Notes: generated by a model not told the origin, from the sequence alone. Positions 10,472 to 57,435 are shown, counted from the first letter of the stretch. The stretch: 57,867 nt of DNA from Candidatus Parcubacteria bacterium (GCA_003599595.1 QZIP01000038.1:1-57867); one strand, 5' to 3'. Numbers and translations: made by a program.

Positions 10472-10559
10472 AACTGCTTACACTATTTTACCTTATCCAG
10501 CCACAAAACTCAACAAAAAATTACAAAACATCCAATTTTCAAAAACAGCGGAAGTTGTG

Positions 10560-10565
10560 TATAAT
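10560..10565 (+). promoter_or_regulatory. -10 box TATAAT, 10 nt upstream of the GT2 start
   Basis: TATAAT at 10560-10565, ATG at 10576, no SD. Confidence 0.35.
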
Positions 10566-10575
10566 ATTTTATGAT

Positions 10576-11337
10576 ATGAATAAATTCTTGCTTTCAGTTG
10601 TTATCCCTTCCTACAATGAAATGGCAAATCTCAGAAAGGGAACACTGGAAAAACTAAAAAATTATCTAGACAAACAAAAAGATAAGTGTTCTTATGAGGT
10701 AATTATTGTAGACGATGGATCAAATGACGGTAGCAGGGAATTTGTTGAAAAATTTGTCAAAGAAAATAATGGTTTCAAACTTGTTAAAAACTCTCATACA
10801 GGTAAAGCGGGTGCTGTCACAGCCGGAGTTCTATCCTCAAAGGGAGATTATGTCCTTTTTACTGATATGGATCAGGCAACTCCAATTGAAGAACTTGATA
10901 AGTTCTTTCCGGCAATTGAAGAAGGGTATGATATTGTGATCGGCTCAAGAAGCAGCAGAAGAAAAGGCTCTCCACTAACCCGTATTATTATGTCAAAAGG
11001 AATAATAGTTTTAAGGACTATTCTGGTAGGTTTACCAAAGGTTAAAGATACGCAATGCGGTTTTAAAATGTTTAGTAAATCAGCGGCAAAAAAGATATTT
11101 AGCAAAGTTAAAGATATTCACCAAGGATATAGTCAGATCAAAGGCTCCTCAGTTACAGCAGGTTTTGATATAGAACTTCTTTATTTAGGAGAAAAGTTTG
11201 GGTACAAGACAAGGGAAATTCCTGTTGATTGGTTATATGTGGAAACCAGGCGTGTAAGTCCCATTAAAGACTCTATTGAAGGCGTGCTTGACTTAGTAAA
11301 AATAAAGTTAAATATTATTAATGGAACCTATAAATAA
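10576..11337 (+). CDS. GT2 polyprenyl-phosphate sugar synthase (DPM1/ALG5/ArnC/CsbB-like)
   Basis: LSVVIPSYNE, IIVDDGSNDGS, FTDMDQATP, DTQCGFKMF. The ORF track starts at a TTG at 10555; the ATG at 10576 is preferred. Confidence 0.8.
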   Translation: MNKFLLSVVIPSYNEMANLRKGTLEKLKNYLDKQKDKCSYEVIIVDDGSNDGSREFVEKFVKENNGFKLVKNSHTGKAGAVTAGVLSSKGDYVLFTDMDQATPIEELDKFFPAIEEGYDIVIGSRSSRRKGSPLTRIIMSKGIIVLRTILVGLPKVKDTQCGFKMFSKSAAKKIFSKVKDIHQGYSQIKGSSVTAGFDIELLYLGEKFGYKTREIPVDWLYVETRRVSPIKDSIEGVLDLVKIKLNIINGTYK

Positions 11338-11339
11338 AT

Positions 11340-11543
11340 AAAGCTAAAAAGTCAAATCTAAAATCTCAAATCTCAAATCTACATCTTAAATATTAAAACT
11401 TATAATCGATTAATGATTAAAGAATAAAGATTAATGAATAAATATATATAAAATATCATTAATCATAAATTCCGATTTAATCGGAATCAATCATTATTCA
11501 TTATTCAAGATATTATAGATTTTAGATTTGAGATTAATAAATT
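11340..11543. repeat. Large imperfect palindromic intergenic element built from heptamer arrays around a CCGAT palindrome
   Basis: Left arm is (CAAATCT/AAAATCT) heptamers at 11353-11394. Right arm AGATTTTAGATTTGAGATT (11518-11535) is complementary to it. Inner pairs are ATTAATGATT/AATCATTAAT and GATTAATGAATAA/TTATTCATTATTC. Central palindrome is ATTCCGATTTAATCGGAAT (11469-11487). Confidence 0.65.
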
Positions 11544-12749
11544 ATGTTTAAAAAATTACTATTTCCCGGCTGGATATTATCAGCCTTATCTCTTTTTCTC
11601 TATTCATTCACTCAGGTTGATCTCTCACTCACTCTTTCAAGGATTTCTATTTGGCAGACAATTCAAAAAGCCTTTCAGTATATTGGCTACTTTGATAGAC
11701 CTTTATCATTAAACTTGTTTCTTGCAATAATGCTGATCTTCATCTTCCTCTACCTTGTTACCTTATACCTTGCCAGCAAAAATAAAATCAAAAGAAAAAA
11801 TGCTTGGCAGATAATTTTTGTGGTAAGCGTAATACTTTTTTTCTCCTACAATGCTTTTTCCTATGATCTTTTTAATTATATGTTTGATGCGAAAATTGTC
11901 ACATATTACCAGCAAAATCCATATGAGCATAAAGCCCTTGATTATCCAGGTGATCCTTATCTTTCCTTCATGCACTGGACTCATAGAGTCTACCCTTACG
12001 GGCCTGTGTGGCTCGCCTTGACAGTTCCCTTGTCTTTTATTGGTTTTAATTTCTTCTTAATCACTTTGTATTTATTTAAATTTCTTGCTCTTTTATCTTT
12101 CTTGGGAACATCCTACTTTTTAGAAAAAATATTAACTAAGATTAATCCAAAAACATCACTCTTAGGCTTAGTTTTCTTTGCCTTTAACCCCTTGGTCTTA
12201 GTAGAATCATTGGTCTCAGCACATAACGACATTGTTATGATTTTCTTTGCTGTATCCGCTGTTTATCTATCACTCGGAAAAAAACTAATTCCTGCAGTTA
12301 TTTCTTTTATATTGTCAATTGGCGTAAAGTTTGTTTCCGTATTTCTAACCCCGTTAATTTTGGTGTTTCTTTTTATGTCTTATAAAAAGAGAATGAATAT
12401 TGAATCAGATTTGCTCAGATTTCAAATTCTTTCCTTGATTGCCTTAGTTCTAATGACCTTTGCTGTAGTTTTTGCTTCTTTTAGAACCAATTTTCAGCCT
12501 TGGTATCTTTTCTATCTTTTACCTATCGCAGCTATGCTCGTAAATAGATATTTTGTTTTAGTTCCAGCCATCATTGTATCGGTTTTCTCTCTATTTCAGT
12601 ATGCTCCTTATATATATCTTGGAAATTGGGACGATCCCGTACCGCAAATTCTATCATTGATAACTATCTCCTCGATTCTAGTCTCATCAGTATTGGTGGT
12701 CCTGGTATTTGTAAGAAGTAGGAAACGGATTTTTAATTTTAAATTTTAA
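11544..12749 (+). CDS. Polytopic membrane protein, putative GT-C (DUF2029/GT87-like)
   Basis: 401 aa, more than 10 hydrophobic segments. First-loop motif YDLFNYMFDAKIVTYYQQNPY, YPYGPVWL, SAHNDIVM. Confidence 0.5.
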   Translation: MFKKLLFPGWILSALSLFLYSFTQVDLSLTLSRISIWQTIQKAFQYIGYFDRPLSLNLFLAIMLIFIFLYLVTLYLASKNKIKRKNAWQIIFVVSVILFFSYNAFSYDLFNYMFDAKIVTYYQQNPYEHKALDYPGDPYLSFMHWTHRVYPYGPVWLALTVPLSFIGFNFFLITLYLFKFLALLSFLGTSYFLEKILTKINPKTSLLGLVFFAFNPLVLVESLVSAHNDIVMIFFAVSAVYLSLGKKLIPAVISFILSIGVKFVSVFLTPLILVFLFMSYKKRMNIESDLLRFQILSLIALVLMTFAVVFASFRTNFQPWYLFYLLPIAAMLVNRYFVLVPAIIVSVFSLFQYAPYIYLGNWDDPVPQILSLITISSILVSSVLVVLVFVRSRKRIFNFKF

Positions 12750-12781
12750 ATTTTATATTATTGTTTATAACACCAGTGTTT

Positions 12782-27190: not shown

Positions 27191-28134
27191 GTAATAAAAA
27201 TAATCTTTCTGTTGTCATATCTGCATATAATGAGCAAAAACATATCAAAGACTGTCTAGAGTCAGTTAGGGATCTTGCGGATGAAATAATTTTTATAGAC
27301 AACACGTCAGAGGATGACACATTAAAAATCGCAAAAAAATACACGGATAAAGTTTTTACCCATCCCAATAATCCAATGCTTAATATCAACAAAAATTATG
27401 GTTTCACAAAAGCAAGTTGTGATTGGATCTTAAACCTCGACGCAGACGAAAGAGTCACTTCAGAACTTGCAAACGAGATTAGGGAAGTAATCGGCTGCAA
27501 GTCACAAGTCACAAGCCACAAGCCAATTCAGGGTTACTGGATTCCAAGAAAAAATATGATCTTTGGAAAATGGATTCAAAATGATATGTGGTGGCCGGAT
27601 TACCAGTTAAGATTGTTTAAAAAAGGAAAGGGAAGCTTCCCAGAACAACACGTCCACGAATATCTCACGGTTCAAGGAGAAACTGAAAAACTCAGAGAGT
27701 CAATATTGCACATTAATTATTCATCCATTGATCAGTTTATCAATAAAATAGGTCTTTACACAGATAATGAAACAGAACAGGTACTGTCCTCAGGCAGAAA
27801 AATTATTTGGTTAGATGCCATAAGATTTCCTGCAAAGGATTTTATAAAGACCTTTTTTGCTCAAAAAGGGTATAGGGATGGTTTACATGGACTAGTATTG
27901 AGTATTCTTCAGGCATTTTATGCAGAGATTGTATTTGTAAAAATTTGGGAAAAACAAGGATTCACAGAGGAAAATAATAAAACCTTTTTAAAAGAGGTAT
28001 ATAAAGAATTTATAAAGATTGCTCTAGAAATAAGATATTGGTTTCTTTCCATTTTGATAGAGCAAGCCAGTAATCCCTTTAAAAAGATATTTTACCGCCT
28101 TCAAAGAAAAAACATAACCAGAAAACTTAAATAA
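27187..28134 (+). CDS. GT2 glycosyltransferase (WaaE/KdtX-like subgroup)
   Basis: 315 aa. LSVVISAYNEQKHIKDCLESVRDLADEIIFIDNTSEDDT, LDADE. ATGA overlap with the flippase gene. Confidence 0.75.
   Translation: MSNKNNLSVVISAYNEQKHIKDCLESVRDLADEIIFIDNTSEDDTLKIAKKYTDKVFTHPNNPMLNINKNYGFTKASCDWILNLDADERVTSELANEIREVIGCKSQVTSHKPIQGYWIPRKNMIFGKWIQNDMWWPDYQLRLFKKGKGSFPEQHVHEYLTVQGETEKLRESILHINYSSIDQFINKIGLYTDNETEQVLSSGRKIIWLDAIRFPAKDFIKTFFAQKGYRDGLHGLVLSILQAFYAEIVFVKIWEKQGFTEENNKTFLKEVYKEFIKIALEIRYWFLSILIEQASNPFKKIFYRLQRKNITRKLK
27498..27525 (+). repeat. Heptanucleotide array (CAAGTCA)2(CAAGCCA)2 inside the GT2 CDS
   Basis: Four tandem 7-mers encoding KSQVTSHKP in a region with no counterpart in paralog 33363-34112. 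Confidence 0.7.
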
Positions 28135-28145
28135 ATTCTTTATTA

Positions 28146-29093
28146 ATGGATATGAAAAAAGTAGCAATAGTAACATTAAGTTACAACAATGAAAAAGATA
28201 CAGCTGAATGTATAGAGTCAATAAATAACTTAAATACATCTACCTTTGACTTATCGGTTATAGTAGTAGATAACGGTTCAAATTCAAAATTCAACCCTTC
28301 GGCAAAGATCAGAGCAAGAATTCAAAATTCAAAATTAAATAAAGGACAATTGAACATAATAAGAAGTGAAGAAAATTTAGGGTTTGCAGAAGGGAACAAT
28401 ATCGGAATAAGGTATTCACTTGAAGAGGGTGCAGAATATATTTTATTGCTTAATAATGATACTTTAATAGACAAGAATTTAATTGTTGAATTGATAAAAA
28501 CAATTGAATCAAGTGACAAAATAGGTATAGTAGTTCCCAAGATATATTTTGCTCCCGGATACGAATTTCACAAAGACAGGTATGAAGAAAAAGAAAAAGG
28601 AAAAGTTATTTGGTATGCGGGGGGAGAAATAGATTGGAAAAATGTCATTGGTCATCATAGAGGTGTGGATGAAGTTGATCATAATCAGTTTGATAAAACA
28701 GAAGAAACTGAATTTGCAACCGGCTGCTGTATGTTGATTAAAAAAGAAGTGTTTGAAAAAATTGGAGCTTTTGACAAAAATTATTACCTTTATTATGAGG
28801 ATAGTGACTTCAGTGAAAGAACAAAAAAAGCAGGTTACAAAATCTTATTTAATCCAAAGGCTATAGTCTGGCACAAAAACGCAGGTTCAGCTGGAGGATC
28901 AGGTTCAAAACTTCAAGATTATTATATTACTCGCAATAGAATTTTATTTTCAATAAAATACGCTCCATTAAGATCAAAACTCGCCGTCTTAAAAGAAAGT
29001 GTAAAGATATTATTAAAAGGTAGAGATTGGCAAAGACGTGCAGTTGCCGACTTTTACTTTGGTAAGCTTGGTAAAGGAAGCTATGAAGAATAA
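28146..29093 (+). CDS. GT2 glycosyltransferase (WbbL/rhamnosyltransferase-like subgroup)
   Basis: 315 aa. VAIVTLSYNN, VVDNGSN, GFAEGNNIG, LLNNDT, GCCMLIKKEVFEKIGAFD, YYEDSDF. Confidence 0.75.
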   Translation: MDMKKVAIVTLSYNNEKDTAECIESINNLNTSTFDLSVIVVDNGSNSKFNPSAKIRARIQNSKLNKGQLNIIRSEENLGFAEGNNIGIRYSLEEGAEYILLLNNDTLIDKNLIVELIKTIESSDKIGIVVPKIYFAPGYEFHKDRYEEKEKGKVIWYAGGEIDWKNVIGHHRGVDEVDHNQFDKTEETEFATGCCMLIKKEVFEKIGAFDKNYYLYYEDSDFSERTKKAGYKILFNPKAIVWHKNAGSAGGSGSKLQDYYITRNRILFSIKYAPLRSKLAVLKESVKILLKGRDWQRRAVADFYFGKLGKGSYEE

Positions 29094-30843
29094 TTTCAGC
29101 TCCGATTTAACCAGATTCAAATTTCAAAAAAAGATCGGCGCATATACTGGTTTAATCTTAATCCTATTGTTCTCCCTTATTCCTCTCACTGATCTTTTTC
29201 ATCCGGGTCTACCCTTAACCCATGATGGTCAAGATCACGTGGCCCGGATTGCTAACTTTTATCAATCTTTTTCAGAAGGGAACTTTATTCCCAGATGGGC
29301 GGCTAATCTCAACTGGGGTTATGGACATCCAATACTTATGTTTCTTTATCCCTTGCCCTCTTATGCAAGTTCTCTGTTTCACTTTATAGGTTTTTCTTTG
29401 ACAGATTCCCTAAAAATTGTATTTGGCTTAAGCTTCATTTTGAGCGGGCTTGCAATGTATCTTTGGGTTAGAAATTTTCTTGGAGAGGCATCAGCACTTA
29501 TTGCGGGAGTATTCTATATTTTTGCTCCTTATAGATTTGTAGACCTTTATGTTAGGGGAGCAATTGGGGAACATACTGCTTTCATTTTTCCTCCACTACT
29601 ATTATATTTCTTGCTTAAGCTTTTCAAGGTTAAGTCATCAAATAGCCATGAACAATATTTTTACTCTATCGGTATTGCTTTTTCGCTTGCAGGCTTTATT
29701 CTTTCTCATAATGCAATCAGCCTTATGTTTCTTCCCTTTATATTCTTTTACGTTCTATACTTATCTCTTGATAAGAAGATAAAGACTAATAGTTCCTTGA
29801 TTAAATCACAACTATCAAGATTAGATGTGAATTATTTGATAAAAAGCTTATCATTTCTTGCTTTTGGATTTCTTATATCATCCTATTTTTGGGTTCCCGC
29901 TTTTTTTGAAGGGAAATATACTCTGAGAGACATAGTGACAAAAGGTGAGTATGCAAATCATTTTGTTAATGCTCCACGGTTGTTTAGTTCTGTTTGGAGT
30001 TACGGCGGGAGTCAAGATCTAAGTGTTCAAATAGGAATAATTCATTTAATAGGTACTGTCCTTTCAGTATTTCTTGCTATTAAATTATTCCATAAAAGCA
30101 AAAAAATATTTATGTTATACATTTTGTCTCTTATGTATTTATTAATATCATTAGTTCTCATGTTGGATCAATCTATTATAATTTGGCAAAAAGTTACTAT
30201 TTTACAAAAATTTCAATTTCCCTGGAGACTTTTATCTGTTGTTGTTTTTATGTCCTCATTTTTAGCAGCAATTGCTTTTTACGTTATTGAAAATAAAAAA
30301 ATGAAAAAGATTATTTTAATCATTTTTTTGGCATCCGTAATTATATTTAACAAAGACTATTGGCGGGCAAATGATTATCTTTACTTATCAGACAGCTTTT
30401 TTAAATCCATTTACAATGGCACGACAGATACAGGAGAAAGTGGACCTAAATGGTCTGTAAGATTTATGGAAAAAAGACCTAATAGTAGAATTGAAATTAT
30501 AGAAGGTAGCGGCAACATAAAAGAAATCTTTAGAGGTTCGACAGACCATAGATATATTATAGAATCCCCAGTAGATAGTGCCAGAGTTAGGGAAAATACT
30601 TTATATTTTCCCGGATGGGCAGTTTTTGTTGATGGAAAACCTGTTAACGTTGAATTCCAAGACCCAAGACATAGAGGTCTTATAACTTTTTATGTTGATA
30701 AGGGAAAACATTTAGTAGAAATTATTTTTGCCGAAACAAAACTCAGGCAAGCATCAAATATCTTATCTTTAATTTCGTTTATTACCATTTTGGTTTATGG
30801 CGCCCACGTATTTTCGTTAAAAAGACAAAAAAAAACTAAATAA
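29083..30843 (+). CDS. GT-C-like family A, A4
   Basis: LTHDGQDHVARIANFYQSFSEGNFIPRW..GYGHPILMF, ILSHNAISL, YFWVPAFFEGKYT, FQFPWRLLS, YFPGWAVFVDGKPV..GKHLVEIIF plus a TM anchor. ATG at 29083 preferred over the GTG at 29038. Confidence 0.6.
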   Translation: MKNNFSSDLTRFKFQKKIGAYTGLILILLFSLIPLTDLFHPGLPLTHDGQDHVARIANFYQSFSEGNFIPRWAANLNWGYGHPILMFLYPLPSYASSLFHFIGFSLTDSLKIVFGLSFILSGLAMYLWVRNFLGEASALIAGVFYIFAPYRFVDLYVRGAIGEHTAFIFPPLLLYFLLKLFKVKSSNSHEQYFYSIGIAFSLAGFILSHNAISLMFLPFIFFYVLYLSLDKKIKTNSSLIKSQLSRLDVNYLIKSLSFLAFGFLISSYFWVPAFFEGKYTLRDIVTKGEYANHFVNAPRLFSSVWSYGGSQDLSVQIGIIHLIGTVLSVFLAIKLFHKSKKIFMLYILSLMYLLISLVLMLDQSIIIWQKVTILQKFQFPWRLLSVVVFMSSFLAAIAFYVIENKKMKKIILIIFLASVIIFNKDYWRANDYLYLSDSFFKSIYNGTTDTGESGPKWSVRFMEKRPNSRIEIIEGSGNIKEIFRGSTDHRYIIESPVDSARVRENTLYFPGWAVFVDGKPVNVEFQDPRHRGLITFYVDKGKHLVEIIFAETKLRQASNILSLISFITILVYGAHVFSLKRQKKTK

Positions 30844-33251
30844 TGAAAAAAAAGATTATCTCTCTTCTACCAATATTTTTTATTTTTATTTTATGGATTA
30901 TTTTTTCTTATCCCTACTTTTTCAATAACAAAATTCCATACCCTTCTGATTATCAGGTAAATTTTTTCCCTCCCTGGAGCTCATATGAAGAATTTTGGGG
31001 GCCAATTAAAAATAATGCAATGCCAGACGTTGTCACTCAAATATATCCGTGGAAGCATTTTACAATAGAAACCTGGAAAATGGGCCAAATACCTCTATGG
31101 AATCCGAATAGTTTTGTAGGAAATGTTCATTTAGCAAACTACCAATCTGCTGTTCTCTCACCCTTCAACTTATTATTTTTTTTACTTCCCTTTGTTGATG
31201 CCTGGAGCTTGCTCGTTTTATTACAGCCATTGCTTGCCGGAATATTTACCTACGTATTTGTCAGAAGCTTAAAAGTAAGTAAAATTGGAAGCCTTATTTC
31301 TTCTATTTCTTTCATGTTTTGCGGTTTTATAACCGTCTGGATGGCTTATGGAACACTTGGATATGCTCTTCTTTTTTTGCCGCTTGCGCTTTTAGGTATA
31401 GAAAAATTTCACCAGACTCAACAAACAAAGTATCTAGTTCTCTTATCTTTAACTATTCCCTTATCCTTCTTTAGTGGACACTTTCAAATCAGTTTATACT
31501 TCTTTGCTACAGTTTTAGCCTACATCATTTATAAATTTGCTGTTACAAAAAAAGTACCTAATACTTTATACCTAATACTTTATGCCTTCTTCGGTCTTTT
31601 GCTATCTCTTCCTCAAATACTTCCTTCAATAGAATCATACTCGCAAACTTTTAGAAGTCTGCTTTATCAAAAACATGAAGCAATACCCCTAAATTATATT
31701 TTGACCTTTTTCCCCCCAGACTTTTACGGTAATCCTGTCACACGCAACGACTGGTTTGGTCATTACGCAGAATGGAATGCTTACTCAGGTGTAATTCCCC
31801 TACTTTTAGCAATTCTTGCTGCTTTTAGTAGAAAGTTTTATAGCACCGGATTCTTTGTCATTATTTGTTTAGGCACATTTTTTCTTGCTGTTGATACTGT
31901 GATTGTTAATATTGTAGTTAATATGCATATTCCTGTTATCTCCACCAGCTCTTTAAGTAGGATTGTTGGAGTTTTCAGTTTTTCAGTTGCAGTTTTGGCA
32001 GGATTTGGATTTGATGAAGTTATTAAAAAAACTTATAGTCAGAAGAAATATATTTACTGGATAATCAGTTCTCTTGTTATTTTTGCAATTCTTTGGATTG
32101 TTGTATTTTTGAAACTAATTCCTGACCCCTCAAAAATACATATTGCAAAAAGCAACCTTATATTTCCTACAATAATATTTACTTTAGGGTTCTTTGTAAT
32201 AATTTCTCATCTTTTAATTAACAAAATTATCAAGTTTCTTTCCTTGCCCTATTTCAATTCATTGCCTAACATAATTAAACAAAAGAAAAATATAACAGCT
32301 CTTTTATCTATCACAATTTTACTGATAATATCGTTTGACTTGGTTAGATTCTCAAGTAAATGGATGCCATTTGATCCAAGGGACCGTGTTTTCCCAAGCC
32401 TCGCTATCACAAAATTTCTTCCCCAAATATCATCAGCAGACCGTGCTCTTGGCAATTATGGTGCTGAGTTATCAGCTTACTACAACATTCCTTCTTTGGA
32501 AGGCTATGACCCAATCTATCTTAAGAGATATGGGGAATTTGCCGCCTACATAGAAAGAGGTGAGTTTGGTGAGTCGGGACGCTCTGTTGTAAATTTTCCA
32601 AGGAGCGGAGTTTATACAGATAAAGCAATTGATTTATTGGGGGTAAGATATATATTGCATAAGACATCAGATAATGGAGTAGGGTGGACATTTCCTTACT
32701 GGAATTACCCAAACAAGTTCAAGCTTATTTTTGAAGATGGAAAATATCAGGTTTATGAGAATAAAGAATCTTTCCCAAGAGCTTTTCTAGTAAATAATTA
32801 CAAGGTGATTAAACAAGAAGAAGAGATTTTAAAAACTCTATTTAATAACAGCTTTGATTTAAGCAAAGAAGTTATTCTTGAAGAAGAGCCAAATATTGAA
32901 TCAAGTAAAAAAATTCCAGCAGGTGAGGCAAAAATCATAAGATACATGCCCAACTCTATAGATGTGACAGTCAATGCAGTCTCCAGTTCAATCCTTCTCC
33001 TGACTGATAATTATTACCCTGGATGGGAAGCTTATATAGATGGGAATAAAACAAAAATATACCGCGGAAATTACACTTTCCGCGCTGTCATTGTTCCAAA
33101 AGGACAACACAATGTTAAATTTGTATATAATCCTCTAAGTTTTAGGATTGGAGTGTTTTTAGCAATCCTTGGCTTACTTGGAATTGTTGGATTTACTGTT
33201 ATAATAAAAAAGCGAAAAATGCAAAACTCAAAAGTCAAAACCAAAGTTTAA
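30843..33251 (+). CDS. GT-C family B (YfhO-like) B2
   Basis: 802 aa. IYPWK..GQIPLWNPNSFVGNVHLANYQSAVLSPFN, PDFYGNP, YYPGWEAYIDGNKTKIYRGN..GQHNVKFVY plus a TM anchor. TAATG overlap with A4. The C-terminal tail is encoded by heptamer repeats. Confidence 0.7.
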   Translation: MKKKIISLLPIFFIFILWIIFSYPYFFNNKIPYPSDYQVNFFPPWSSYEEFWGPIKNNAMPDVVTQIYPWKHFTIETWKMGQIPLWNPNSFVGNVHLANYQSAVLSPFNLLFFLLPFVDAWSLLVLLQPLLAGIFTYVFVRSLKVSKIGSLISSISFMFCGFITVWMAYGTLGYALLFLPLALLGIEKFHQTQQTKYLVLLSLTIPLSFFSGHFQISLYFFATVLAYIIYKFAVTKKVPNTLYLILYAFFGLLLSLPQILPSIESYSQTFRSLLYQKHEAIPLNYILTFFPPDFYGNPVTRNDWFGHYAEWNAYSGVIPLLLAILAAFSRKFYSTGFFVIICLGTFFLAVDTVIVNIVVNMHIPVISTSSLSRIVGVFSFSVAVLAGFGFDEVIKKTYSQKKYIYWIISSLVIFAILWIVVFLKLIPDPSKIHIAKSNLIFPTIIFTLGFFVIISHLLINKIIKFLSLPYFNSLPNIIKQKKNITALLSITILLIISFDLVRFSSKWMPFDPRDRVFPSLAITKFLPQISSADRALGNYGAELSAYYNIPSLEGYDPIYLKRYGEFAAYIERGEFGESGRSVVNFPRSGVYTDKAIDLLGVRYILHKTSDNGVGWTFPYWNYPNKFKLIFEDGKYQVYENKESFPRAFLVNNYKVIKQEEEILKTLFNNSFDLSKEVILEEEPNIESSKKIPAGEAKIIRYMPNSIDVTVNAVSSSILLLTDNYYPGWEAYIDGNKTKIYRGNYTFRAVIVPKGQHNVKFVYNPLSFRIGVFLAILGLLGIVGFTVIIKKRKMQNSKVKTKV

Positions 33252-33362
33252 AAATCAAAACTTATTATACTATTATTGCAAAGTTTTTAGCTTTAAGTTT
33301 TAGTTTTGAGCTTTGACCCCGATTTAATCGGGGTTGAGATTTAAGTTTTGAGATTGTTTATT
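33220..33362. repeat. Palindromic element built from heptamer arrays around a CCCCGAT palindrome
   Basis: AAACTCA/AAAGTCA/AAACCAA heptamers (from 33224), complementary AAGTTTTAGTTTTGAGCTTTGAC, palindrome ACCCCGATTTAATCGGGGT (33316-33334), then TTGAGATTTAAGTTTTGAGATT. Confidence 0.6.
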
Positions 33363-35762: not shown

Positions 35763-38114
35763 ATGAAAAAGATAATAAAAAAAAACATATATTATTTCTT
35801 ATTGGTAGTAGTTGTCTTTATTTTTTTTTATCAGTTCTTTTTGAAAGGTTTTTTGCCTATCCCTTCAGACACAATCATCGGCCTTTATCACCCTTTCAGG
35901 GATTATTATTCAAAAGATTATCCAAATGGTATTCCATTCAAAAATTTTTTAGTTACAGATCCAGTACGCCAAACTTTTCCCTGGAAAAAACTTGCCCTGG
36001 ACACATCTCCAGGTTCAACTCTTCCAATCTGGAATCCTTATGAGATGGCAGGAAAGCCTTTAATTGGCAATTTTCAAACAGGTTTTTTCTATCCATTTAA
36101 TCTGATTTTTTTCCTCAAGCCCTTTTATTTATCCTGGTCAATCTTTATTTTTTTGCAATCACTTTTTGCCGCCACATTTATGTATTTATATTTAAAAAAT
36201 TTAAATTTGGATAATAGAGCTGTTTATTTAGGTACAGTCTCTTTTTGTTTTTCAAGTTTTTTTATCTCCTGGCTTGAATGGGGAAACGTAATACATACGG
36301 CATTGTGGCTACCTCTCATCTTGTTAGCCATCGACAAAATCTTTATTTATCAAAAGCAAATAAACTCAAATCTCAAAGCTCAAAATTCAAAGCCACAACT
36401 CAAAACTCAAAACTTATTTGTTTGGTCAATGATATTCCTTTTTTCACTTACATCCTCATTTTTTGCAGGACACCTACAAATATTTTTTTATCTTTTTATT
36501 TTTTCCTCGATTTATTTTTTTGCTAAATGGTATAAAGAAGGAAAAAAGACAAAATTGTTTATATCATACTTAATACTTAATACATTCTTCTTAATACTTA
36601 CTTCAGTTCAATGGGTTCCAACTCTACAGTTTATTCTCTTATCCGCAAGAGGCGTTGACCAAGTCTATTATCAAGCTGAAGGATGGTTTATTCCCTGGCA
36701 GCATCTTGTTCAGTTCCTTGTTCCAGATTTCTTTGGAAATCCTACCACCTTAAATTATTGGGGGACGTGGAATTATGCAGAGTTAAGCGGATATGTAGGG
36801 GCTGTTCCATTAATATTCGCTTTAATAGCAATATTTTTTAGATTTGATAAAAAAACTCTTTTTTTTGGGACAGCATTACTAATATCTTTATTATTTTCTC
36901 TACCTACCTTTTTCGCCGGGCTTCCTTATGTTTTAAATATTCCATTTATTTCTTCTTCTCAGCCCACAAGGCTACTTTTTATAACCTCTTTTTGCTTGGC
37001 TGTCTTGTCTTCTTTGGGGTTTAATCTGATGATAAAAAATCCTAGACTAATTAATAAGGCAATAATAACAAGTATTGTAGTAGGCTTGTCTTACGCCGCT
37101 TTATGGATTTTTGTTCTGACAGGTTCGTTAAGCATGTTTAATATTTCACCTGAAAATATTGCTACAGCAAAAAGAAACTTAATTTTTCCATCTAGTATTT
37201 TTCTTGCAGTTTTCTTTTTAATTATAGTTGTAAAATATTTTAAAAATCATCTTTTCCAAACAATAATATTTATCGCCATTTTAATTCTTGCATCATTTGA
37301 GCTTTTAAGATTTTCATTTAAGTTTGAGCCTTTTACAGACAAGGCATATCTTTTTCCTGAAACAAAAGTTATAGAATTTCTTAATAGTCAAAAAAAACCT
37401 TTTAGAATTGCATCTTTAGATTCAAGAATTTTTCCACCTAATTTTTCAACTTATTACAAGCTGGAATCAATAGAAGGGTACGACCCTCTCTATTTATCGT
37501 CTTACGCTGAATTTATAGCCGCCTCAGAAAGAAACAGGGCAAATGTTGATCCTCCTTTTGGTTTTAATAGAATCATCACTCCACGAAATCTAGATTCAAA
37601 ATTAATAGACCTTTTAAATGTTAAATACACTCTTTCATTATCAGAAATTAACTCGGGTAAGTTTAACAAAGTCTTCCAAGAAGGACAAACCCGGATTTAC
37701 GAGAATAAAGATGTTTTACCCCGGATATTTTTTACTGAAAACATAAAACTCGTGAATAACAAAAAAGACGCGTTAAATATTATGTTTGAAAAAGACTTTG
37801 ACCCTCTTAAATTAGCGGTTATAGAATTTCACACTTCAGATCTTGCCTTGTACCCCCGGAGCGCAAAGCAGAATGCATCCCAGGGGTGCCTAAGGTGTAG
37901 CGTTGAAATATTAGATTACAGAGAGAATGAAATAAAAATTAAAACAAAAAATGAAGTTAGTGGATTTTTAGTAATTACTGACACGTACTATCCAACCTGG
38001 AAAGTATTAATTGATGGAAAAAAAGATAAAATTTATAAAACTAACTATACTTTCAGAGGTTTGTTTATTCCGGAGGGAGAACATATAATAACAATGTACA
38101 CAACGCTATTCTAA
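35763..38114 (+). CDS. GT-C family B (YfhO-like) B3, lacking the terminal TM anchor
   Basis: 783 aa. TFPWK..LPIWNPYEMAGKPLIGNFQTGFFYPFN, PDFFGNP, YYPTWKVLIDGKKDKIYKTN..GEHIITMY. It then stops, whereas B1, B2 and B4 continue about 30 aa into a TM helix. Confidence 0.7.
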   Translation: MKKIIKKNIYYFLLVVVVFIFFYQFFLKGFLPIPSDTIIGLYHPFRDYYSKDYPNGIPFKNFLVTDPVRQTFPWKKLALDTSPGSTLPIWNPYEMAGKPLIGNFQTGFFYPFNLIFFLKPFYLSWSIFIFLQSLFAATFMYLYLKNLNLDNRAVYLGTVSFCFSSFFISWLEWGNVIHTALWLPLILLAIDKIFIYQKQINSNLKAQNSKPQLKTQNLFVWSMIFLFSLTSSFFAGHLQIFFYLFIFSSIYFFAKWYKEGKKTKLFISYLILNTFFLILTSVQWVPTLQFILLSARGVDQVYYQAEGWFIPWQHLVQFLVPDFFGNPTTLNYWGTWNYAELSGYVGAVPLIFALIAIFFRFDKKTLFFGTALLISLLFSLPTFFAGLPYVLNIPFISSSQPTRLLFITSFCLAVLSSLGFNLMIKNPRLINKAIITSIVVGLSYAALWIFVLTGSLSMFNISPENIATAKRNLIFPSSIFLAVFFLIIVVKYFKNHLFQTIIFIAILILASFELLRFSFKFEPFTDKAYLFPETKVIEFLNSQKKPFRIASLDSRIFPPNFSTYYKLESIEGYDPLYLSSYAEFIAASERNRANVDPPFGFNRIITPRNLDSKLIDLLNVKYTLSLSEINSGKFNKVFQEGQTRIYENKDVLPRIFFTENIKLVNNKKDALNIMFEKDFDPLKLAVIEFHTSDLALYPRSAKQNASQGCLRCSVEILDYRENEIKIKTKNEVSGFLVITDTYYPTWKVLIDGKKDKIYKTNYTFRGLFIPEGEHIITMYTTLF
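36362..36415 (+). repeat. Degenerate heptamer array (AANCTCA-like, about 8 units) inside the B3 CDS
   Basis: AAACTCA AATCTCA AAGCTCA AAATTCA AAGCCAC AACTCAA AACTCAA, encoding NSNLKAQNSKPQLKTQN. This segment is absent from B1, B2 and B4. Confidence 0.65.
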
Positions 38115-38252: not shown

Positions 38253-39197
38253 ATGAAGATAGATATTATTATTCCAAATTACAACGGTTTACGTTTGGTA
38301 GAAAAGAATCTTCCGCTCGTTATTGACAGAGTTAAAGATTTTAATGGTGTTTCGATAGTTATCGTAGATGACTGTTCAAGCCGCGATGAGTTTGAAAAAA
38401 TCAAAGAATTAATCACTTCATTGTCAGACATTGATCCCAAAACTAAAATAGAACTTATTAGAAATGAGAAAAATCTAGGATTTTCATCCTCAATTAATAA
38501 AGCCGCCTTAAAATCAAATGCCGATTACCTAGTATTTTTGAATACGGATGTTATTCCGGAAAAAGACTTTTTAAAAGCGGCAATAGAGGACATGATGGAA
38601 GACAACAATCTTTTTGGCATAGGTTTTTTAGATAAAAGTATTGAAGGGGAAAAAACAATACTTAGAGGTAGAGGGGTTGGAGCATGGAAAAGAGGATTTT
38701 TGATTCACAAGCGTGGAGAAGTGGATAGAGACAATACTCTTTGGATCTCAGGTGGCAGTTGTTTGGTTAATGCTAAAGTCTTTAAAAAACTGGGAGGCTT
38801 CGACAATATATACAATCCATTTTACTGGGAAGATATTGATTTATCTTACAGAGCTCAAAAAGCAGGATTTAACATATTATTTGAAAAAAGAAGTGAGGTT
38901 GTGCATAAGCACTTTGAGGGAGCAATAAAAAAATATTACAGCGGTTTTCAAATAAAGACCTACGCTTACAGAAATCAATTTATATTTATTTGGAAAAATA
39001 TTACTGATTTGAGTTTGGTTCTTTCACATATTTTATGGCTGCCTTATCATTTGCTTCGTGCTTTAATAAGGCTAGACACTCCCTTTTTTCTTGGATTTGT
39101 TCTTGCACTAGTCAAGATTCCTGTTATAATTTTTAAAAGGATAAGAGAGGCAAAAAACACTAAAACAGACAAGCAAGTCCTGCAAAAATTTAAATGA
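38253..39197 (+). CDS. GT2 glycosyltransferase (WbbL-like subgroup), paralog of 28146-29093
   Basis: 314 aa. IDIIIPNYNG, IVDDCSS, GFSSSINK, FLNTDV, GGSCLVNAKVFKKLGGFD, YWEDIDL. Confidence 0.75.
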   Translation: MKIDIIIPNYNGLRLVEKNLPLVIDRVKDFNGVSIVIVDDCSSRDEFEKIKELITSLSDIDPKTKIELIRNEKNLGFSSSINKAALKSNADYLVFLNTDVIPEKDFLKAAIEDMMEDNNLFGIGFLDKSIEGEKTILRGRGVGAWKRGFLIHKRGEVDRDNTLWISGGSCLVNAKVFKKLGGFDNIYNPFYWEDIDLSYRAQKAGFNILFEKRSEVVHKHFEGAIKKYYSGFQIKTYAYRNQFIFIWKNITDLSLVLSHILWLPYHLLRALIRLDTPFFLGFVLALVKIPVIIFKRIREAKNTKTDKQVLQKFK

Positions 39198-39907
39198 AAC
39201 TATCAATAATAATTCCCGCTTACAATGAAGGAAAAACAATTGGTGAAATACTGAAAAAAGTAGAAAAAGTTCAATTGAATGGCGTTGGGAAAGAAATTAT
39301 TGTAGTTGACGATGGATCAATCGATGCCACAGCATCGGTAATTTCCAATTTCCAATTTCCAATTTCCAATTTTAAAATTATAAGGCACAAAAGAAACCTT
39401 GGAAAGGGGGCGGCAGTGCAAACGGGCATTGAAAACGCAACAGGTGATATGATATTGATTCAGGATGCAGATTTAGAATATGACCCCAAAGATATACCCA
39501 GACTTATAGAGCCAATAATTAAGAATAAATCCAAAGTTGTTTATGGCACAAGACTTAGGACCAAGCCCGTACTGTTTGGAAACAAAAGAACGCCATTATT
39601 AGCTCATTTTTTTGGAAATAAGTTTCTAAGCTTAGCAACAACAATATTATATGGTAAAAAAATAACAGATATGGAAACGGGATATAAAGTGTTTCACAAA
39701 TCCGCTCTTGCAGGCATTAAATTAAAAGCAAAATCTTTTGATTTTGAGCCAGAAATAACCGCAAAAATTTTAAGAAAAGGTATTGAAATTCACGAAATAG
39801 ATATAAAAACAAATCCAAGAGGATATGGGGAAGGAAAAAAATTAGTCGCTCTAAAAGATGGCCCTCTTGCCATGTGGACACTAATAAAATACAGATTTAT
39901 TAATTAG
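39194..39907 (+). CDS. GT2 polyprenyl-phosphate sugar synthase (DPM1/ArnC-like)
   Basis: 237 aa. LSIIIPAYNE, VVDDGSIDAT, IQDADLEYDP, ETGYKVF. ATGA overlap with the upstream GT2. Confidence 0.8.
   Translation: MKLSIIIPAYNEGKTIGEILKKVEKVQLNGVGKEIIVVDDGSIDATASVISNFQFPISNFKIIRHKRNLGKGAAVQTGIENATGDMILIQDADLEYDPKDIPRLIEPIIKNKSKVVYGTRLRTKPVLFGNKRTPLLAHFFGNKFLSLATTILYGKKITDMETGYKVFHKSALAGIKLKAKSFDFEPEITAKILRKGIEIHEIDIKTNPRGYGEGKKLVALKDGPLAMWTLIKYRFIN
39342..39369 (+). repeat. Perfect heptanucleotide array (TTTCCAA)x4 inside the GT2 CDS
   Basis: Four exact tandem 7-mers encoding ISNFQFPISNF. Confidence 0.85.
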
Positions 39908-46714: not shown

Positions 46715-47335
46715 TTGCTAAAGAACTTAATGAAGAAGAGTAATATCAATAACTTTACAAGAGGAACAGGAGTTCTTGAAAATCTTTTGTCAAATCTAAG
46801 GGCACAAAAAGCAAATAGTTTAATAGATAATAATTTAAGAGCCGGTAAGGTGCTGGACATCGGCTGTGGTCTTTTTCCGTATTTTCTTTCATCAACAGAA
46901 TTTAAAGAAAAATATGGAATAGATAAGTATATTTACCAAAAAGGATTCAACGATAAAGAGGTTCATTTAAAGCAAATTGACGTTGAAAATGAAAAAATCC
47001 CATTCCCAGAAGAACACTTTGATGTAGTAGTGATGCTTGCGGTATTTGAACATATTAAACCTGAAAACCTTGAATTTGTTATAGGAGAAATTTTTCGGGT
47101 TCTTAAAAAGAATGGACAACTCATTGTTACTACCCCTTCACAGTGGTCAGTTCCAGTACTTCATATACTTTCAAGAATTAATATTATTAGCAAGGTAGAA
47201 ATAGATGACCACAAAAATTCCTTTAGCGCCTTGAGTATCGCAGATCAGATTAGAAAATCAGGGTTTAATAAAGAAAAAATAAAAAAAGGATATTTTGAAT
47301 TATTTTTAAATATGTGGTTTATGGCAAGAAAATGA
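46715..47335 (+). CDS. Class I SAM-dependent methyltransferase
   Basis: VLDIGCGLFPY (motif I), DVVVMLAVFEH, LKKNGQLIVTTP. The start may be the ATG at 46730. Confidence 0.75.
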   Translation: MLKNLMKKSNINNFTRGTGVLENLLSNLRAQKANSLIDNNLRAGKVLDIGCGLFPYFLSSTEFKEKYGIDKYIYQKGFNDKEVHLKQIDVENEKIPFPEEHFDVVVMLAVFEHIKPENLEFVIGEIFRVLKKNGQLIVTTPSQWSVPVLHILSRINIISKVEIDDHKNSFSALSIADQIRKSGFNKEKIKKGYFELFLNMWFMARK

Positions 47336-49002
47336 AAAAAATCAACTTTTTGATTAAGAAAAATAATATTAAGACATTGTTAGTTATAGGTGCGGTCATT
47401 ATTTTTATTGTGTACTTTCTTCATCCTTTATTAAGAGAAGAAATGTATGTAAGCCATGATAGTGAGCCTCAAATTGTTAGAATAGGAGCGTTTTACAAGG
47501 CAATAACAAGCGGGCAGATTCCTCCGCGCTGGGCATCAGACCTTAACTATAGATATGGTTCCCCCACTCTTAACTTCTTTTTTCCACTGGAAGGTTATCT
47601 GGGAACAATAATTCATCTTATCGGTTTTAATCTACAGAACACATTTAAAATCTTAATGGGCGCAAGTTTTATCTTCTCTATAGTCTTTTTCTTTTACTGG
47701 CTTAGGGAGATTTTTGATAAAAATACTGCTTTCTTTGGAGCAGTACTCTATGGTATTGTTCCATACAAATTTTTAGACATGTACGTTAGAGGTCAATTGG
47801 GGGAAATGTTAGCCTTTGTTTTTGTACCGCTTGTTCTACTGTTTATAGAAAAAAACAAGAAAAATTCAAGAATTGAAAATGTAATTATAGGAGGAATTTC
47901 TTATGCTCTTCTGATATTGTCTCATAATATTTTAGCTCTTATATTTTCAGTCGTTTTTGCTGGATACTTACTTACAAATAATTGGTTTAACAAAGATGCA
48001 ATTCTTAAAAATGGATTAATGTTGGTAACTGGTTTATTCCTTGCAGCATTCTTTTGGCTTCCAGCCCTTTATGAGTCAAAATATGTAAATAGTAAAATTT
48101 TTGTGGGAGATATGTTTAAAAACCACTTTATAGAGCCTCAAAATCTTATTTATTCAGCCTGGGGATATGGTAGTAATATTAATGAGGCGGGGGGATTATC
48201 TCCATATCTTGGCCCAATGCATTTTCTTTTTGCTTTATTAAGTCTTGTTTTTATAGTTATTTCTAGAAATAAAGTTAGGAATAAAAGAATATTTTACTAC
48301 TGGTTGGTTATCCTTGTCTTTTCGTTATTTATGTCTACCAAGCTTTCCAGTATATTTTGGCAGGAATTTCATATCATTCAACAATTTCAATTTCCATGGA
48401 GATTTATGGCTCTTTCTAGTTTTGCAATTTCCGTGATTGGAGCTTTTTCATTTTCAGTCATAAAAGATAAATCCATTATAGTTATTGGGATAATAATCTT
48501 GATACTAATTAGTGGCTCAATTATAAAAGTTTCAGATTATACAAACAAGGAAGACTCATATTATCTTGATTATCCTGGAACCGCAGCCTACCATGGTGAA
48601 GCGACCACAATTTGGACGGCAGGAGATGCGGATAAATTTGCAAAATCACAAATAGAAGTTATTGAGGGGCAATTAATAATAAAAGAATATATTAAAAAGC
48701 CAAACATTCATACCTTGTTTGTGGATTCAAAAACAGAAGCGCGGATAGTAGATAACACTGTGTATTTTCCCGGGTGGAAAGCTTATGTAGACAACAAAAA
48801 AACATCAATCGAATTTCAGGATATAAATCATAGAGGGCTTATAACGTTTAAAGTTCCTGAGGGGGTACATAAGGTAGAAATAAAATTTGAAGAATCTCCT
48901 ATTAGAATATCGGCGAATTTTATATCTTTCTTTACATTAATAATTGTAATATTGTTTTTGCTTAAGAGAAAGTATATAAACAATGCTATTATAAAATTAT
49001 GA
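47332..49002 (+). CDS. GT-C-like family A, A5
   Basis: YVSHDSEPQIVRIGAFYKAITSGQIPPRW..RYGSPTLNF, ILSHNILAL, FFWLPALYESKYV, FQFPWRFMA, YFPGWKAYVDNKKT..GVHKVEIKF plus a TM anchor. ATGA overlap with the methyltransferase gene. Confidence 0.6.
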   Translation: MKKINFLIKKNNIKTLLVIGAVIIFIVYFLHPLLREEMYVSHDSEPQIVRIGAFYKAITSGQIPPRWASDLNYRYGSPTLNFFFPLEGYLGTIIHLIGFNLQNTFKILMGASFIFSIVFFFYWLREIFDKNTAFFGAVLYGIVPYKFLDMYVRGQLGEMLAFVFVPLVLLFIEKNKKNSRIENVIIGGISYALLILSHNILALIFSVVFAGYLLTNNWFNKDAILKNGLMLVTGLFLAAFFWLPALYESKYVNSKIFVGDMFKNHFIEPQNLIYSAWGYGSNINEAGGLSPYLGPMHFLFALLSLVFIVISRNKVRNKRIFYYWLVILVFSLFMSTKLSSIFWQEFHIIQQFQFPWRFMALSSFAISVIGAFSFSVIKDKSIIVIGIIILILISGSIIKVSDYTNKEDSYYLDYPGTAAYHGEATTIWTAGDADKFAKSQIEVIEGQLIIKEYIKKPNIHTLFVDSKTEARIVDNTVYFPGWKAYVDNKKTSIEFQDINHRGLITFKVPEGVHKVEIKFEESPIRISANFISFFTLIIVILFLLKRKYINNAIIKL

Positions 49003-55731: not shown

Positions 55732-57435
55732 ATGAGTAGAAAATATATTCTAATATTAATTATCCTTCTTGCATTTATATTACGTTTTTATCAAATATCA
55801 AACATTCCCCCTTCTCTTACTTGGGATGAAGCGGCGTGGGGCTATAATGCATATTCATTAGGAATTAATGGAAGAGATGAGTTCGGAAAATTTCTACCCA
55901 TAACTTACATTGAGTCTTTTGGCGACTTTAAGCCCCCTCTATATGCTTATTTGTCAATTTTACCAATAAAATTGTTTGGCCTTAATGAATTTTCTGTAAG
56001 ATTTGCATCTGCCTTTTTAGGAACATTAACGGTTTTATTGACATATTTTCTAACAAAACAAATATTTTCGCAAAAATCACAGTTACTTGATATTTGGCAT
56101 TTGAAATTTGGAATTCCAGAAGTAGCATCACTACTTCTGGCTATCTCTCCTTGGCATATTCTTCTATCCCGTGCTGCTTTTGAAGCTAACGTTGCCACTT
56201 TTTTTATAGTCCTTGGAGTATTGTTGTTTTTTATCTCTACTCAAAACACCAAGGGCGCATCTTCAATCTCATTAATTCCACTTTGGATATGGAGACGTAT
56301 TAACACATCGGGAGGCTTGTTCTTGCTTTCAGTGCTATCATTTACCGCATCTATGTATACTTTTAATACTGCACGTGTTGTTGTTCCACTTTTGGTTTTT
56401 GGTCTTATTACCGGAAAAAGAAAAGCACTCCTAAATATAAAGAAACAAGTATTCATAGCCGCAGTAATCGGATTTATTATCTTTCTTCCTTTAGGACTAT
56501 TTCTTAAAACACCTCAGGCTCAGCTAAGATTCCAAGAGGTCAATATTTTTTCTGATCCTTCTGTTATTGAAAGATCCAATCAGCAGATAAAAAATGACAA
56601 TAATGCTTTTTGGTCAAAAATAATTCACAATAGAAGGCTGGCTTATTCTGTAGAATTTCTAAGGCATTACTTTGACAACCTTAACCCCTCATTCCTCTTC
56701 TTTAAAGGTGATGGTAACCCAAAATTTTCTACACAAGACATAGGTCAAATGTATGTTTGGGAACTCCCATTCTTTATATTCGGTTTTCTTTATCTGTTTA
56801 GAAATAGGCAAGGAAATTGGTGGATTGTTCCTTACTGGTTATTGATTGCAATCTTGCCTGCTGCAACAGCCAGGGAAACACCTCATGCTCTTAGAATAGA
56901 AGCTGCTTTGCCAACATTTCAAATAATAACTGCTTATGGATTATTCCAAATAATTTCAAATTTCAAATTTCAAATTTCAAATTTCAAATTAAATTATCTA
57001 TTGCCAAGTATTGTTTTTGTATTAGCATTATTTAATTTGGCATATTTCATGCATAATTATTTTGTTCATTACCCGCGGGAATTCTCAGGAGAGTGGCAAT
57101 ATGGTTATAGGGAAGCAATAAATTATGCAAAGAGTGTTGAAGATCAGTATAGCAATATTTATTTAACAGACAGTCTTGGCAGACCATATATATACACTCT
57201 TTTCTATACTCAGTACGATCCTAATAAATTCTTACAGGAAGCAAAAATAGAGAGAGAAGTTTTTGGTTTTGTAAAAGTTAAAAATTTTGGAAAATACACT
57301 TTTGAGAAAACACAAGAACCCTCTGTAAATACATTATTTATTGATAGACCAGGCAATGTTCCTGGAGGAGCAAATATATTAAAAGAATTTTATCTATTAA
57401 ATGGTGAAAAAATATTAACAGCCTACACAATATAA
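55732..57435 (+). CDS. GT-C family C (GT39-like) C5
   Basis: 567 aa. LRFYQISNIPPSLTWDEAAWGYNAYSL, SPWHILLSRAAFE, RETPHALRIEAALP. Contains an in-frame heptamer array. Confidence 0.75.
   Translation: MSRKYILILIILLAFILRFYQISNIPPSLTWDEAAWGYNAYSLGINGRDEFGKFLPITYIESFGDFKPPLYAYLSILPIKLFGLNEFSVRFASAFLGTLTVLLTYFLTKQIFSQKSQLLDIWHLKFGIPEVASLLLAISPWHILLSRAAFEANVATFFIVLGVLLFFISTQNTKGASSISLIPLWIWRRINTSGGLFLLSVLSFTASMYTFNTARVVVPLLVFGLITGKRKALLNIKKQVFIAAVIGFIIFLPLGLFLKTPQAQLRFQEVNIFSDPSVIERSNQQIKNDNNAFWSKIIHNRRLAYSVEFLRHYFDNLNPSFLFFKGDGNPKFSTQDIGQMYVWELPFFIFGFLYLFRNRQGNWWIVPYWLLIAILPAATARETPHALRIEAALPTFQIITAYGLFQIISNFKFQISNFKLNYLLPSIVFVLALFNLAYFMHNYFVHYPREFSGEWQYGYREAINYAKSVEDQYSNIYLTDSLGRPYIYTLFYTQYDPNKFLQEAKIEREVFGFVKVKNFGKYTFEKTQEPSVNTLFIDRPGNVPGGANILKEFYLLNGEKILTAYTI
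56954..56988 (+). repeat. Perfect heptanucleotide array (TTTCAAA)x5 inside the GT39 CDS
   Basis: Five exact tandem 7-mers encoding ISNFKFQISNFK. Confidence 0.9.

Follow-up and report, generated by a model that had tools for sequence, protein, structure and literature searches.

Heptanucleotide repeats are a recognised feature of bacterial genomes. According to PMC4692102, a 2007 survey found heptamers to be over-represented in many bacterial genomes and polymerase slippage was proposed as the cause; examples are the short tandemly repeated repetitive (STRR) heptamers of cyanobacteria and the GGGNATC repeats of Xanthomonas and Nostoc. A coding example, (AAGACTC)n, is located in the 5' coding region of neuO, which encodes the phase-variable capsule O-acetyltransferase of prophage CUS-3 in E. 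coli K1. The neuO tract ranges from 3 to 53 copies and is OFF in 66% of 64 genomes (PMC13001214). Here, we analyse a 57,867-nt stretch of DNA from a Candidatus Parcubacteria bacterium (QZIP01000038.1, the window), in which a short heptanucleotide array lies within the coding sequence of a family-2 glycosyltransferase (GT2).

Homologs with a taxonomic name, both for the GT2 and for the Lon protease encoded at 305-2707, belong to Candidatus Levybacteria / Levyibacteriota (Patescibacteria, Candidate Phyla Radiation, CPR), the closest being 71% identical for GT2 and 82% for Lon. A single large glycosylation cluster occupies the window from approximately 10.5 kb to its end and comprises genes for GT2, GT4, trehalose-phosphate synthase and many YfhO and PMT/GT-C membrane proteins. 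The GC content of the genome is ~32%, and glycosylation clusters are slightly more AT-rich.

Similarities and differences to the described systems can be observed. Like the heptamers covered in PMC4692102, the Levybacteria arrays consist of tandem 7-nt units, show an excess specific to period 7, are abundant in a lineage-specific manner and include convergent intergenic pairs. While the heptamers described there are mostly intergenic and often G-rich, the Levybacteria arrays are mostly coding, in frame, AT-rich, G-poor on the sense strand and concentrated in glycosylation clusters. With a Levybacteria host and a coding position, the GT2 array also falls outside the STRR class, which is mainly intergenic and found in heterocystous cyanobacteria. 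It shares with neuO a coding heptanucleotide tract in a surface-glycan-modifying enzyme, a 7-residue repeat read through three frames and a frame that depends on copy number modulo 3. In contrast to neuO, it has ~4.7 copies, its length is constant across species and no OFF allele was seen. The GT2 array takes the place of a core helix-loop of the fold, whereas the neuO tract forms an N-terminal extension. The unit length not divisible by 3, the 5' location in a glycosyltransferase gene and the clustering in glycan loci also recall the simple sequence repeat (SSR) contingency loci of Haemophilus, Neisseria, Campylobacter and Pasteurella. The tracts in these organisms usually have units of 1-5 nt, many copies and hypervariable lengths, while the Levybacteria units are 7 nt long, occur in few copies and show no variability that we could see.

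Neither an excess of heptamers in bacterial genomes nor a heptanucleotide tract within the coding sequence of a glycan-modifying enzyme (neuO) is without precedent. New here is a CPR lineage with short, mostly coding, fixed-length arrays that are conserved across species and concentrated in glycosylation clusters. We found no report of heptamer repeats or phase variation in CPR/Patescibacteria in the literature searched.

The heptanucleotide array of the GT2 gene

The open reading frame (ORF) at 39194-39907 had been predicted to encode a DPM1-like GT2, and this assignment is supported by the PF00535 match (E=1.7e-35) and by the best solved relative, the Pyrococcus dolichol-phosphate mannose synthase (DPMS; 5mlz, E=1.7e-19). 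The DXD motif, QDADLEY, is invariant across orthologs. Together with the Pfam match, the modelled fold and the similarity to 5mlz, it identifies a GT-A catalytic domain. In DPM1/GtrB/ArnC-like polyprenyl-phosphate glycosyltransferases, the lipid acceptor is accommodated by C-terminal membrane or interface helices. The GT2 protein has 237 residues, compared to 374 in 5mlz, and its C-terminus is predicted to form a single long helix (residues 219-235). Its NCBIfam equivalog scores for AglJ (114) and PpgS (78) are far under the respective cut-offs, and an exact-protein look-up returned no record of an identical protein.

Four exact TTTCCAA units had been noted at 39342-39369. They are present, but the perfect period-7 run is wider, spanning the 33 nt from 39340 to 39372, and reads AATTTCCAATTTCCAATTTCCAATTTCCAATTT, corresponding to (AATTTCC)x4.7. 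The run is in frame and translates to VISNFQFPISNF, which constitutes V49-F60 (codons 49-60 of 237). With 4.7 perfect copies, it belongs to the heptanucleotide SSRs, defined by at least three head-to-tail 7-nt copies beyond chance. The array is built from rare codons, as TCC accounts for 10% of Ser codons and TTC for 18% of Phe codons. By inspection, AATTTCC does not fit the slippery heptamer X XXY YYZ of -1 ribosomal frameshifting, while the AAATTTC phase of a second array, found in a GT-C gene (see below), appears to fit the pattern in formal terms. No internal promoter or terminator signal above shuffled sequences was detected at the array (7 promoter-like matches compared to 4.8 expected; no terminator).

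The array had been described as an insertion that is missing from paralogs. It is not an insertion, since the alignment with the two window paralogs, 25039 and 10555, runs through it ungapped. Most of the best 120 orthologs have a length of 237-238 residues, with an equally long non-repeat segment at the array site. In the alignment with 5mlz, the segment corresponds to helix α2 and the turn into strand β3. An AlphaFold model built on 61 orthologs (pLDDT 84.8, pTM 0.82) adopts the GT-A fold and places the array at the end of a predicted helix (46-52), in a loop (53-59) and at the start of a strand (60-64). The confidence of the model dips only in the loop. The gap-free paralogs, the equal lengths of orthologs and the modelled helix-loop together indicate that the array overwrote a surface helix-loop of the GT-A fold at unchanged length.

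Arrays immediately follow the D-D/N-G/C-S motif in three different GT2 families (window 39194, window 28146 and locus L212 6864), which makes this site a recurrently tolerant one. The closest ortholog (P0002, L204 10001-10753, 71% identical) contains SELLTLIKELTLIKH at the array site, an LTLIKE/LTLIKH repeat with an 18-nt period. The site thus draws tandem duplications of other periods too.

The same peptide, (D)ATASVISNF(Q/K)F(P/Q)ISNF(K/Q), is present in 19 of the best 120 orthologs, with 62-70% identity to the window protein. We fetched six of the array-bearing genes and compared them with the window gene. In all seven genes the array occupies identical codons and the gene length is unchanged. 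Three of the arrays are identical over the 33 nt, and the P0095 array holds one extra full unit without a change in gene length. The three degenerate arrays (P0004, P0088, P0119) contain a few unit-to-unit substitutions, which convert TTTCCAA to TTTCAAA or TTTTAAA. The mean identity of third codon positions across the seven genes is 0.50, at an amino-acid identity of 0.70 (62-71% relative to the window protein). Within the 11-codon array window the third-position identity rises to 0.90, the maximum of the gene, compared to ~0.61 at most in windows with equally conserved amino acids. The rare codons of the array are retained in most of the seven genes, with TCA/TTT used instead only in some units of the degenerate arrays. 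The high third-position identity and the retained rare codons point to an action on the nucleotides, not on the peptide alone. A tandem repeat can therefore overwrite a core helix-loop of a conserved fold at constant length and then stay identical at synonymous sites across species.

In a bootstrapped neighbour-joining tree calculated with the array region masked, 14 array-bearing proteins form one clade (99/100). The window protein, P0004 and P0005 are located outside this clade, amid array-less orthologs. Several of the array-less orthologs contain peptides such as SVLSNF... (P0120), which we interpret as putative decayed copies of the array. The simplest history would be that of an old array lost by decay in many lineages, with recombination or convergence as the alternatives.

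In silico gain or loss of one or two units results in a stop codon at residue 55-67, before the DXD motif, while changes by three units stay in frame. The tract has the architecture of a contingency locus in its 5' coding position, its 7-nt unit that is not a multiple of 3 and the truncation of the product upon unit change. The length polymorphism anticipated in the original prediction was not seen. All 19 array-bearing orthologs are in frame, and the segment is equally long in 17 of them; the other two differ by in-frame insertions of non-repeat sequence and not by simple unit gains. Unit indels were absent from the seven DNA sequences, and no array indel was seen in six contig pairs with 99-100% identity (~85 kb, roughly 15 arrays). 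The sample is limited, and since the look-ups were made by intact protein it is biased against OFF alleles; within it, neither the copy-number changes nor the OFF alleles of a neuO-type locus were observed. Phase variation through the array is possible in principle but unsupported.

Frameshift-split genes at arrays were considered as OFF candidates. The one candidate in the Levybacteria loci turned out to be the junction of two adjacent genes, and 16 candidates in other genomes read likewise as gene junctions, without a one-by-one check.

One of the compared pairs, L212 and L213 (99% identical), differs within genes mainly in one patch (L212 6884-7043), located at the 5' end of a different GT2 gene. 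An AAATCAA x4.6 array (7012-7043), which follows the DDCS motif of that gene, marks the exact end of the patch; this suggests a putative recombination tract bounded by a heptamer array.

Period-7 arrays in Levybacteria and in other genomes

The number of arrays in the window was compared to order-3 Markov simulations of the window for periods 4 to 15. We found 16 period-7 arrays with a score of at least 8 (2.4 expected), 9 with at least 10 (0.28 expected) and 5 with at least 12 (0.04 expected). The GT2 array has a score of 26. Among the other periods, only 14 (2x7; one or two arrays) and 6 (three arrays, middle threshold only) were enriched. The only perfect repeats in the window with units of 5-15 nt and at least three copies are three heptamer arrays. 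Matches of 6-7 nt at offset 7 outside discrete arrays are not clearly above those at other offsets, so the period-7 signal resides in the discrete arrays.

Seven related Levybacteria glycosylation loci contain 20 period-7 arrays (score of at least 10) and almost none of other periods. Their units vary and include TATTTGC, AATTCAA, AGTATCA, TGGAAAA, AATATCA and AAATCAA among others. The window and the related loci thus show an excess that is specific to the period and made up of many different units, which bears out the earlier proposal of a DNA-level phenomenon rather than protein homology.

At a score of at least 8, Levybacteria glycosylation clusters contain 51 arrays in 190 kb, compared to 1 in 56 kb of neighbouring DNA (~10-fold denser), part of the 190-kb sample having been selected via the array-bearing gene. 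In three loci selected through Lon, blind to arrays, 7 arrays are located in 18.6 kb of glycosyltransferase cluster and 1 in 40.6 kb of other DNA (hand-calculated binomial, p ~0.002). Both comparisons include orthologous arrays, which are non-independent, and the clusters, besides being slightly more AT-rich, consist mainly of genes for fast-evolving membrane proteins. The original prediction had combined enrichment in glycosylation genes with length polymorphism; the former holds in the Levybacteria clusters, while no polymorphism was seen. The sole array in the 56 kb of non-glycosylation DNA (L215 2547-2586, AAAATCT/AAATCTC, ~5.7 copies) is located in a class I (GltX-type) aminoacyl-tRNA synthetase gene.

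The units found at one site can be compared between lineages. At the loop site 36362-36414 of a YfhO protein, orthologs have other units and lengths, or no array. At the membrane-helix site 36566-36604 of the same protein, orthologs are equal in length and contain lineage-specific period-7 units. Array lengths at the YfhO and GT-C loops differ by multiples of 7 residues. Units that are alike within a lineage and different between lineages at one site are a signature of concerted tandem-repeat evolution.

A second perfect array, (AATTTCA)x5.6, is located at 56952-56990 in the PMT/GT-C ORF 55732-57435 and encodes ISNFKFQISNFK. At this loop, the window, L201 and L206 proteins are longer by 7 residues (three units) than some orthologs or paralogs, and the L201 ortholog contains an AGTATYA array at the same position. 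Two adjacent GT-C paralogs of L201, 36% identical, carry near-identical AGTATYA arrays at the homologous loop (17993-18020 and 19786-19817), which could reflect either paralog conversion or parallel homogenisation.

The GT2 and GT-C units differ by one nucleotide (AATTTCC and AATTTCA), as had been noted, and this likeness had been taken as a sign of common or mobile seeding. Under a composition-weighted null limited to units without a stop codon in any frame, two units differ at no more than one position in ~2% of cases. The real arrays of these genomes are much more alike, with 22% of pairs within one mismatch in the same genome and 15% between genomes (permutation p=0.08). We replaced the composition-only null by this empirical repertoire, and the mobile-seeding reading was rejected. 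The surviving units are narrow in range, being AT-rich, G-poor on the sense strand and composed of an A-run, a T-run and then C. From the genetic code, we reason that AAATTTC is the sole contiguous-run arrangement of 3A+3T+1 with none of TAA, TAG or TGA in any frame. Given this narrow repertoire, the resemblance of the GT2 and GT-C units needs no shared origin.

A scan for three copies of TTTCMAA with one genome per species (GTDB) gave at least 120 loci. Among the 80 titled matches listed, 34 belong to Patescibacteria and the rest to Kuenenia, Planctomycetes, Nitrospirae, uncultured Gammaproteobacteria, Acidobacteria, Bacteroidota and others. The matches listed contain 122 arrays, of which 59 have 3-3.99 copies, 57 have 4-4.99, five have 5-5.99 and one has 8, leaving 116 with fewer than 5. 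The M base is uniform in 111 of the 122, and 63 arrays are in sense orientation in ORFs of at least 150 residues. A Pfam scan of the 76 array-containing ORFs of this size (63 sense, 13 antisense) identified seven GT4-type transferases and two O-antigen ligases, as well as five class I aminoacyl-tRNA synthetases, four Mur ligases, KsgA, Fmt, RecJ, SecA and pyruvate kinase. Across other genomes, the unit is thus not specific to glycosylation genes, and TTTCMAA arrays also occur where the gene cannot be switched off.

As a control, we used unrelated GT2 loci from a metagenome ortholog scan, in which the genes among the matches listed were 41-58% identical and none was useful for the array. The 841 kb of TTTCMAA loci contain, in addition, ~150 heptamer arrays with other units, compared to 10 in 360 kb of the control loci, which indicates that heptamer richness is a trait of particular genomes. 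The longest TTTCAAA-type array among the matches listed is a 78-nt composite in a metagenome-assembled genome (MAG) of Candidatus Kuenenia stuttgartiensis (L049 1728-1805), with (CGAATCT)x3 followed by (GAAATTT)x8; three separate contigs of that genome matched.

Possible origins of the array

We consider it probable, although far from certain, that the GT2 array is a heptanucleotide SSR that arose by 7-nt slippage or misalignment, survived where it was tolerated and was homogenised by concerted evolution. Replication misalignment in this lineage, and in scattered other bacteria, would strongly prefer a 7-nt offset. Such events could create, extend and homogenise short period-7 arrays. Within a gene, an array would be read in all three frames and would survive only if its unit is stop-free in each. 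In AT-rich DNA, this demand would favour units with an A-run, a T-run and then C, such as AAATTTC and AATTTCC. The total length of the array would have to preserve the reading frame, and the encoded peptide would have to land in a tolerant place, in this case the surface end of helix α2 and the loop before β3. Templated correction between neighbouring units may then keep the synonymous sites identical, either by transient misalignment without a net length change or by cycles of loss and regain, while selection on the fold may hold the array length constant. The enrichment in clusters would reflect fast-evolving genes, mostly encoding membrane proteins with tolerant loops.

Several points weigh against this explanation. 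We infer the 7-nt misalignment mechanism itself. As no array indel was found between near-identical strains, active slippage is not demonstrated on short time scales, and homogenisation alone then accounts less readily for the high synonymous conservation. The three array-bearing proteins outside the main clade would require repeated decay in the intervening lineages, recombination or convergence. Finally, the ~10-fold enrichment in clusters is also predicted by an adaptive contingency role.

In such a role, slippage by a single unit would switch the GT2 ON and OFF, cycling would keep the array homogeneous and the surface glycan would be phase-variable, as with neuO. This would agree with a unit length not divisible by 3, with the position of the tract at codons 49-60 of 237, with the stop at 55-67 before the DXD motif after a change by one or two units, with the perfect homogeneity and synonymous-site conservation, and with the ~10-fold enrichment in a class of genes for which phase variation is typical elsewhere among bacteria (PMC13001214). 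We nevertheless regard it as unlikely, if deserving of some weight. The 19 array-bearing orthologous proteins, a sample biased against OFF alleles, are all in frame, 17 of them with the same segment length, unit indels are absent from the 7 DNA sequences and from the six strain pairs (~85 kb), and no array coincides with a frameshift-split gene. Its 4.7 copies contrast with the 3-53 repeats of neuO and the OFF state of the latter in 66% of 64 genomes, and essential genes of other genomes contain this very unit with the same copy numbers. A broader idea, which we see as a tentative minority view, is that fixed-site heptamer tracts in glycosylation genes of Levybacteria, and perhaps other CPR, form a conserved low-frequency switch system or serve as recombination anchors. 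If true, their conservation and enrichment would reflect selection for surface evolvability in episymbionts, not tolerance of slippage.

Selection could also act on the motif itself, be it a DNA or mRNA element that is bound or serves as a structural signal, a 33-nt recombination anchor or a peptide. The array is the most conserved nucleotide stretch of the gene, rare codons included, has a fixed length across species and is also found in GT2 lineages that branch outside the main clade; similar-sized TTTCMAA arrays recur in many phyla, and the divergent patch of one strain pair ends exactly at an array in another GT2 gene. The arrays at the equivalent position in other genes and lineages are made of quite different units, which argues against recognition of a specific sequence. 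As many orthologs manage without the array and no structure or promoter signal stands out (7 versus 4.8 expected, no terminator), we find this improbable. Slightly lower still is the likelihood of a shared direct origin of the GT2 and GT-C arrays through a mobile or gene-converting repeat that moves between glycosylation genes. The two units are one base apart, with a composition-based null of ~2%, the L201 paralogs of 36% identity carry near-identical AGTATYA arrays, and AATATCA occurs in both a GT4 gene and a YfhO gene of L212. This must be set against the 15-22% of real array pairs that lie within one mismatch, the non-significant within-genome excess (permutation p=0.08), the GT2 array being ancestral to a clade whose GT-C site holds other units, and the absence of flanking mobile-element hallmarks. 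A chance low-complexity run or an assembly artefact might be suspected in an AT-rich genome (~32% GC) assembled from a metagenome. This reading is effectively refuted by the Markov-3 null, which gives 0.04 arrays per window at a score of at least 12 compared to 26 for this array, and by orthologous arrays at the same codons in independent ENA, JGI, NCBI and Logan assemblies.

CPR bacteria rely on cell-surface contacts with hosts, and their large glycosylation clusters are poorly understood. Dense, lineage-wide, in-frame heptamers provide a handle on the evolution of surface enzymes and a candidate mechanism of variation, and the GT2 array is a clean natural case for the concerted evolution of short repeats. 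In annotation, ISNFKFQ- and ISNFQFP-type peptides in proteins of CPR and other MAGs should be read as translated heptamer repeats, not as homology signals.

Further arrays and neighbouring genes of the window

Coordinates of the arrays and of the two main glycosyltransferase genes in the window
Feature	Position	Strand	Details
DPM1/GtrB-like family-2 glycosyltransferase	39194..39907	+	237 residues, soluble GT-A domain only; PF00535, 5mlz, AlphaFold
Perfect heptanucleotide array (AATTTCC)x4.7	39340..39372	+	Encodes V49-F60 of GT2; nucleotide-level conservation in 6 orthologous genes
PMT/GT-C-type membrane glycosyltransferase	55732..57435	+	567 residues; PF02366 (E=7.6e-9) and PF13231
Perfect array (AATTTCA)x5.6	56952..56990	+	ISNFKFQISNFK in loop between membrane helices
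Imperfect TTGAAAT/TTGGAAT array	56087..56115	+	Same GT-C gene; reverse-complement orientation of the GT-C unit family
Two short AAATTCA arrays (28280-28294, 28319-28336)	28280..28336	+	GT2 ORF 28146-29093, directly after DNGS
(CAAGTCA/CAAGCCA)x4 array	27498..27525	+	GT2 ORF 27187-28134
Imperfect AAACTCA-type array, 7.7 copies	36362..36414	+	Length-variable loop of YfhO ORF 35763-38114
Period-7 DNA (ATACTTA)	36566..36604	+	Membrane helix of YfhO ORF 35763-38114
Period-14/7 array (TACCTAATACTTTA)	31555..31587	+	YfhO ORF 30843-33251
Imperfect CAAAACT array	33222..33262	+	3' end of YfhO ORF 30843-33251
(ATTTTAA)x4.4 array	12729..12759	+	3' end of ORF 11544-12749
Four heptamer arrays	11340..11535	.	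Intergenic; long imperfect palindrome

The intergenic region 11338-11543, between the GT2 ORF 10555-11337 and ORF 11544-12749, constitutes an imperfect palindrome of ~200 nt. Its arms are convergent heptamer arrays, with AAATCTC... facing ...GAGATTT and TAATGAT... facing ...ATCATTA. As RNA, the region has a folding energy of -42.4 kcal/mol (z=-6.1 versus shuffles). It resembles the convergent heptamer pairs of Xanthomonas (PMC4692102).

The ORFs 46715-47335 and 47314-49002, located on the same strand, share 22 nt shortly downstream of an A-rich tract at 47267-47287 (AATAAAAAAAA x1.9). They could represent a split gene or simply two genes.

The first 10 kb of the window contain Lon, DusB, an IS30 transposase and an Erm-type methyltransferase. 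The IS30-family transposase (5422-6417, minus strand) adjoins the Erm-type 23S rRNA methyltransferase (7942-8703, minus strand), which scores 230 bits against an NCBIfam cut-off of 212. The local GC of this segment is 0.415, compared to ~0.32, and it may be DNA acquired by the CPR genome.

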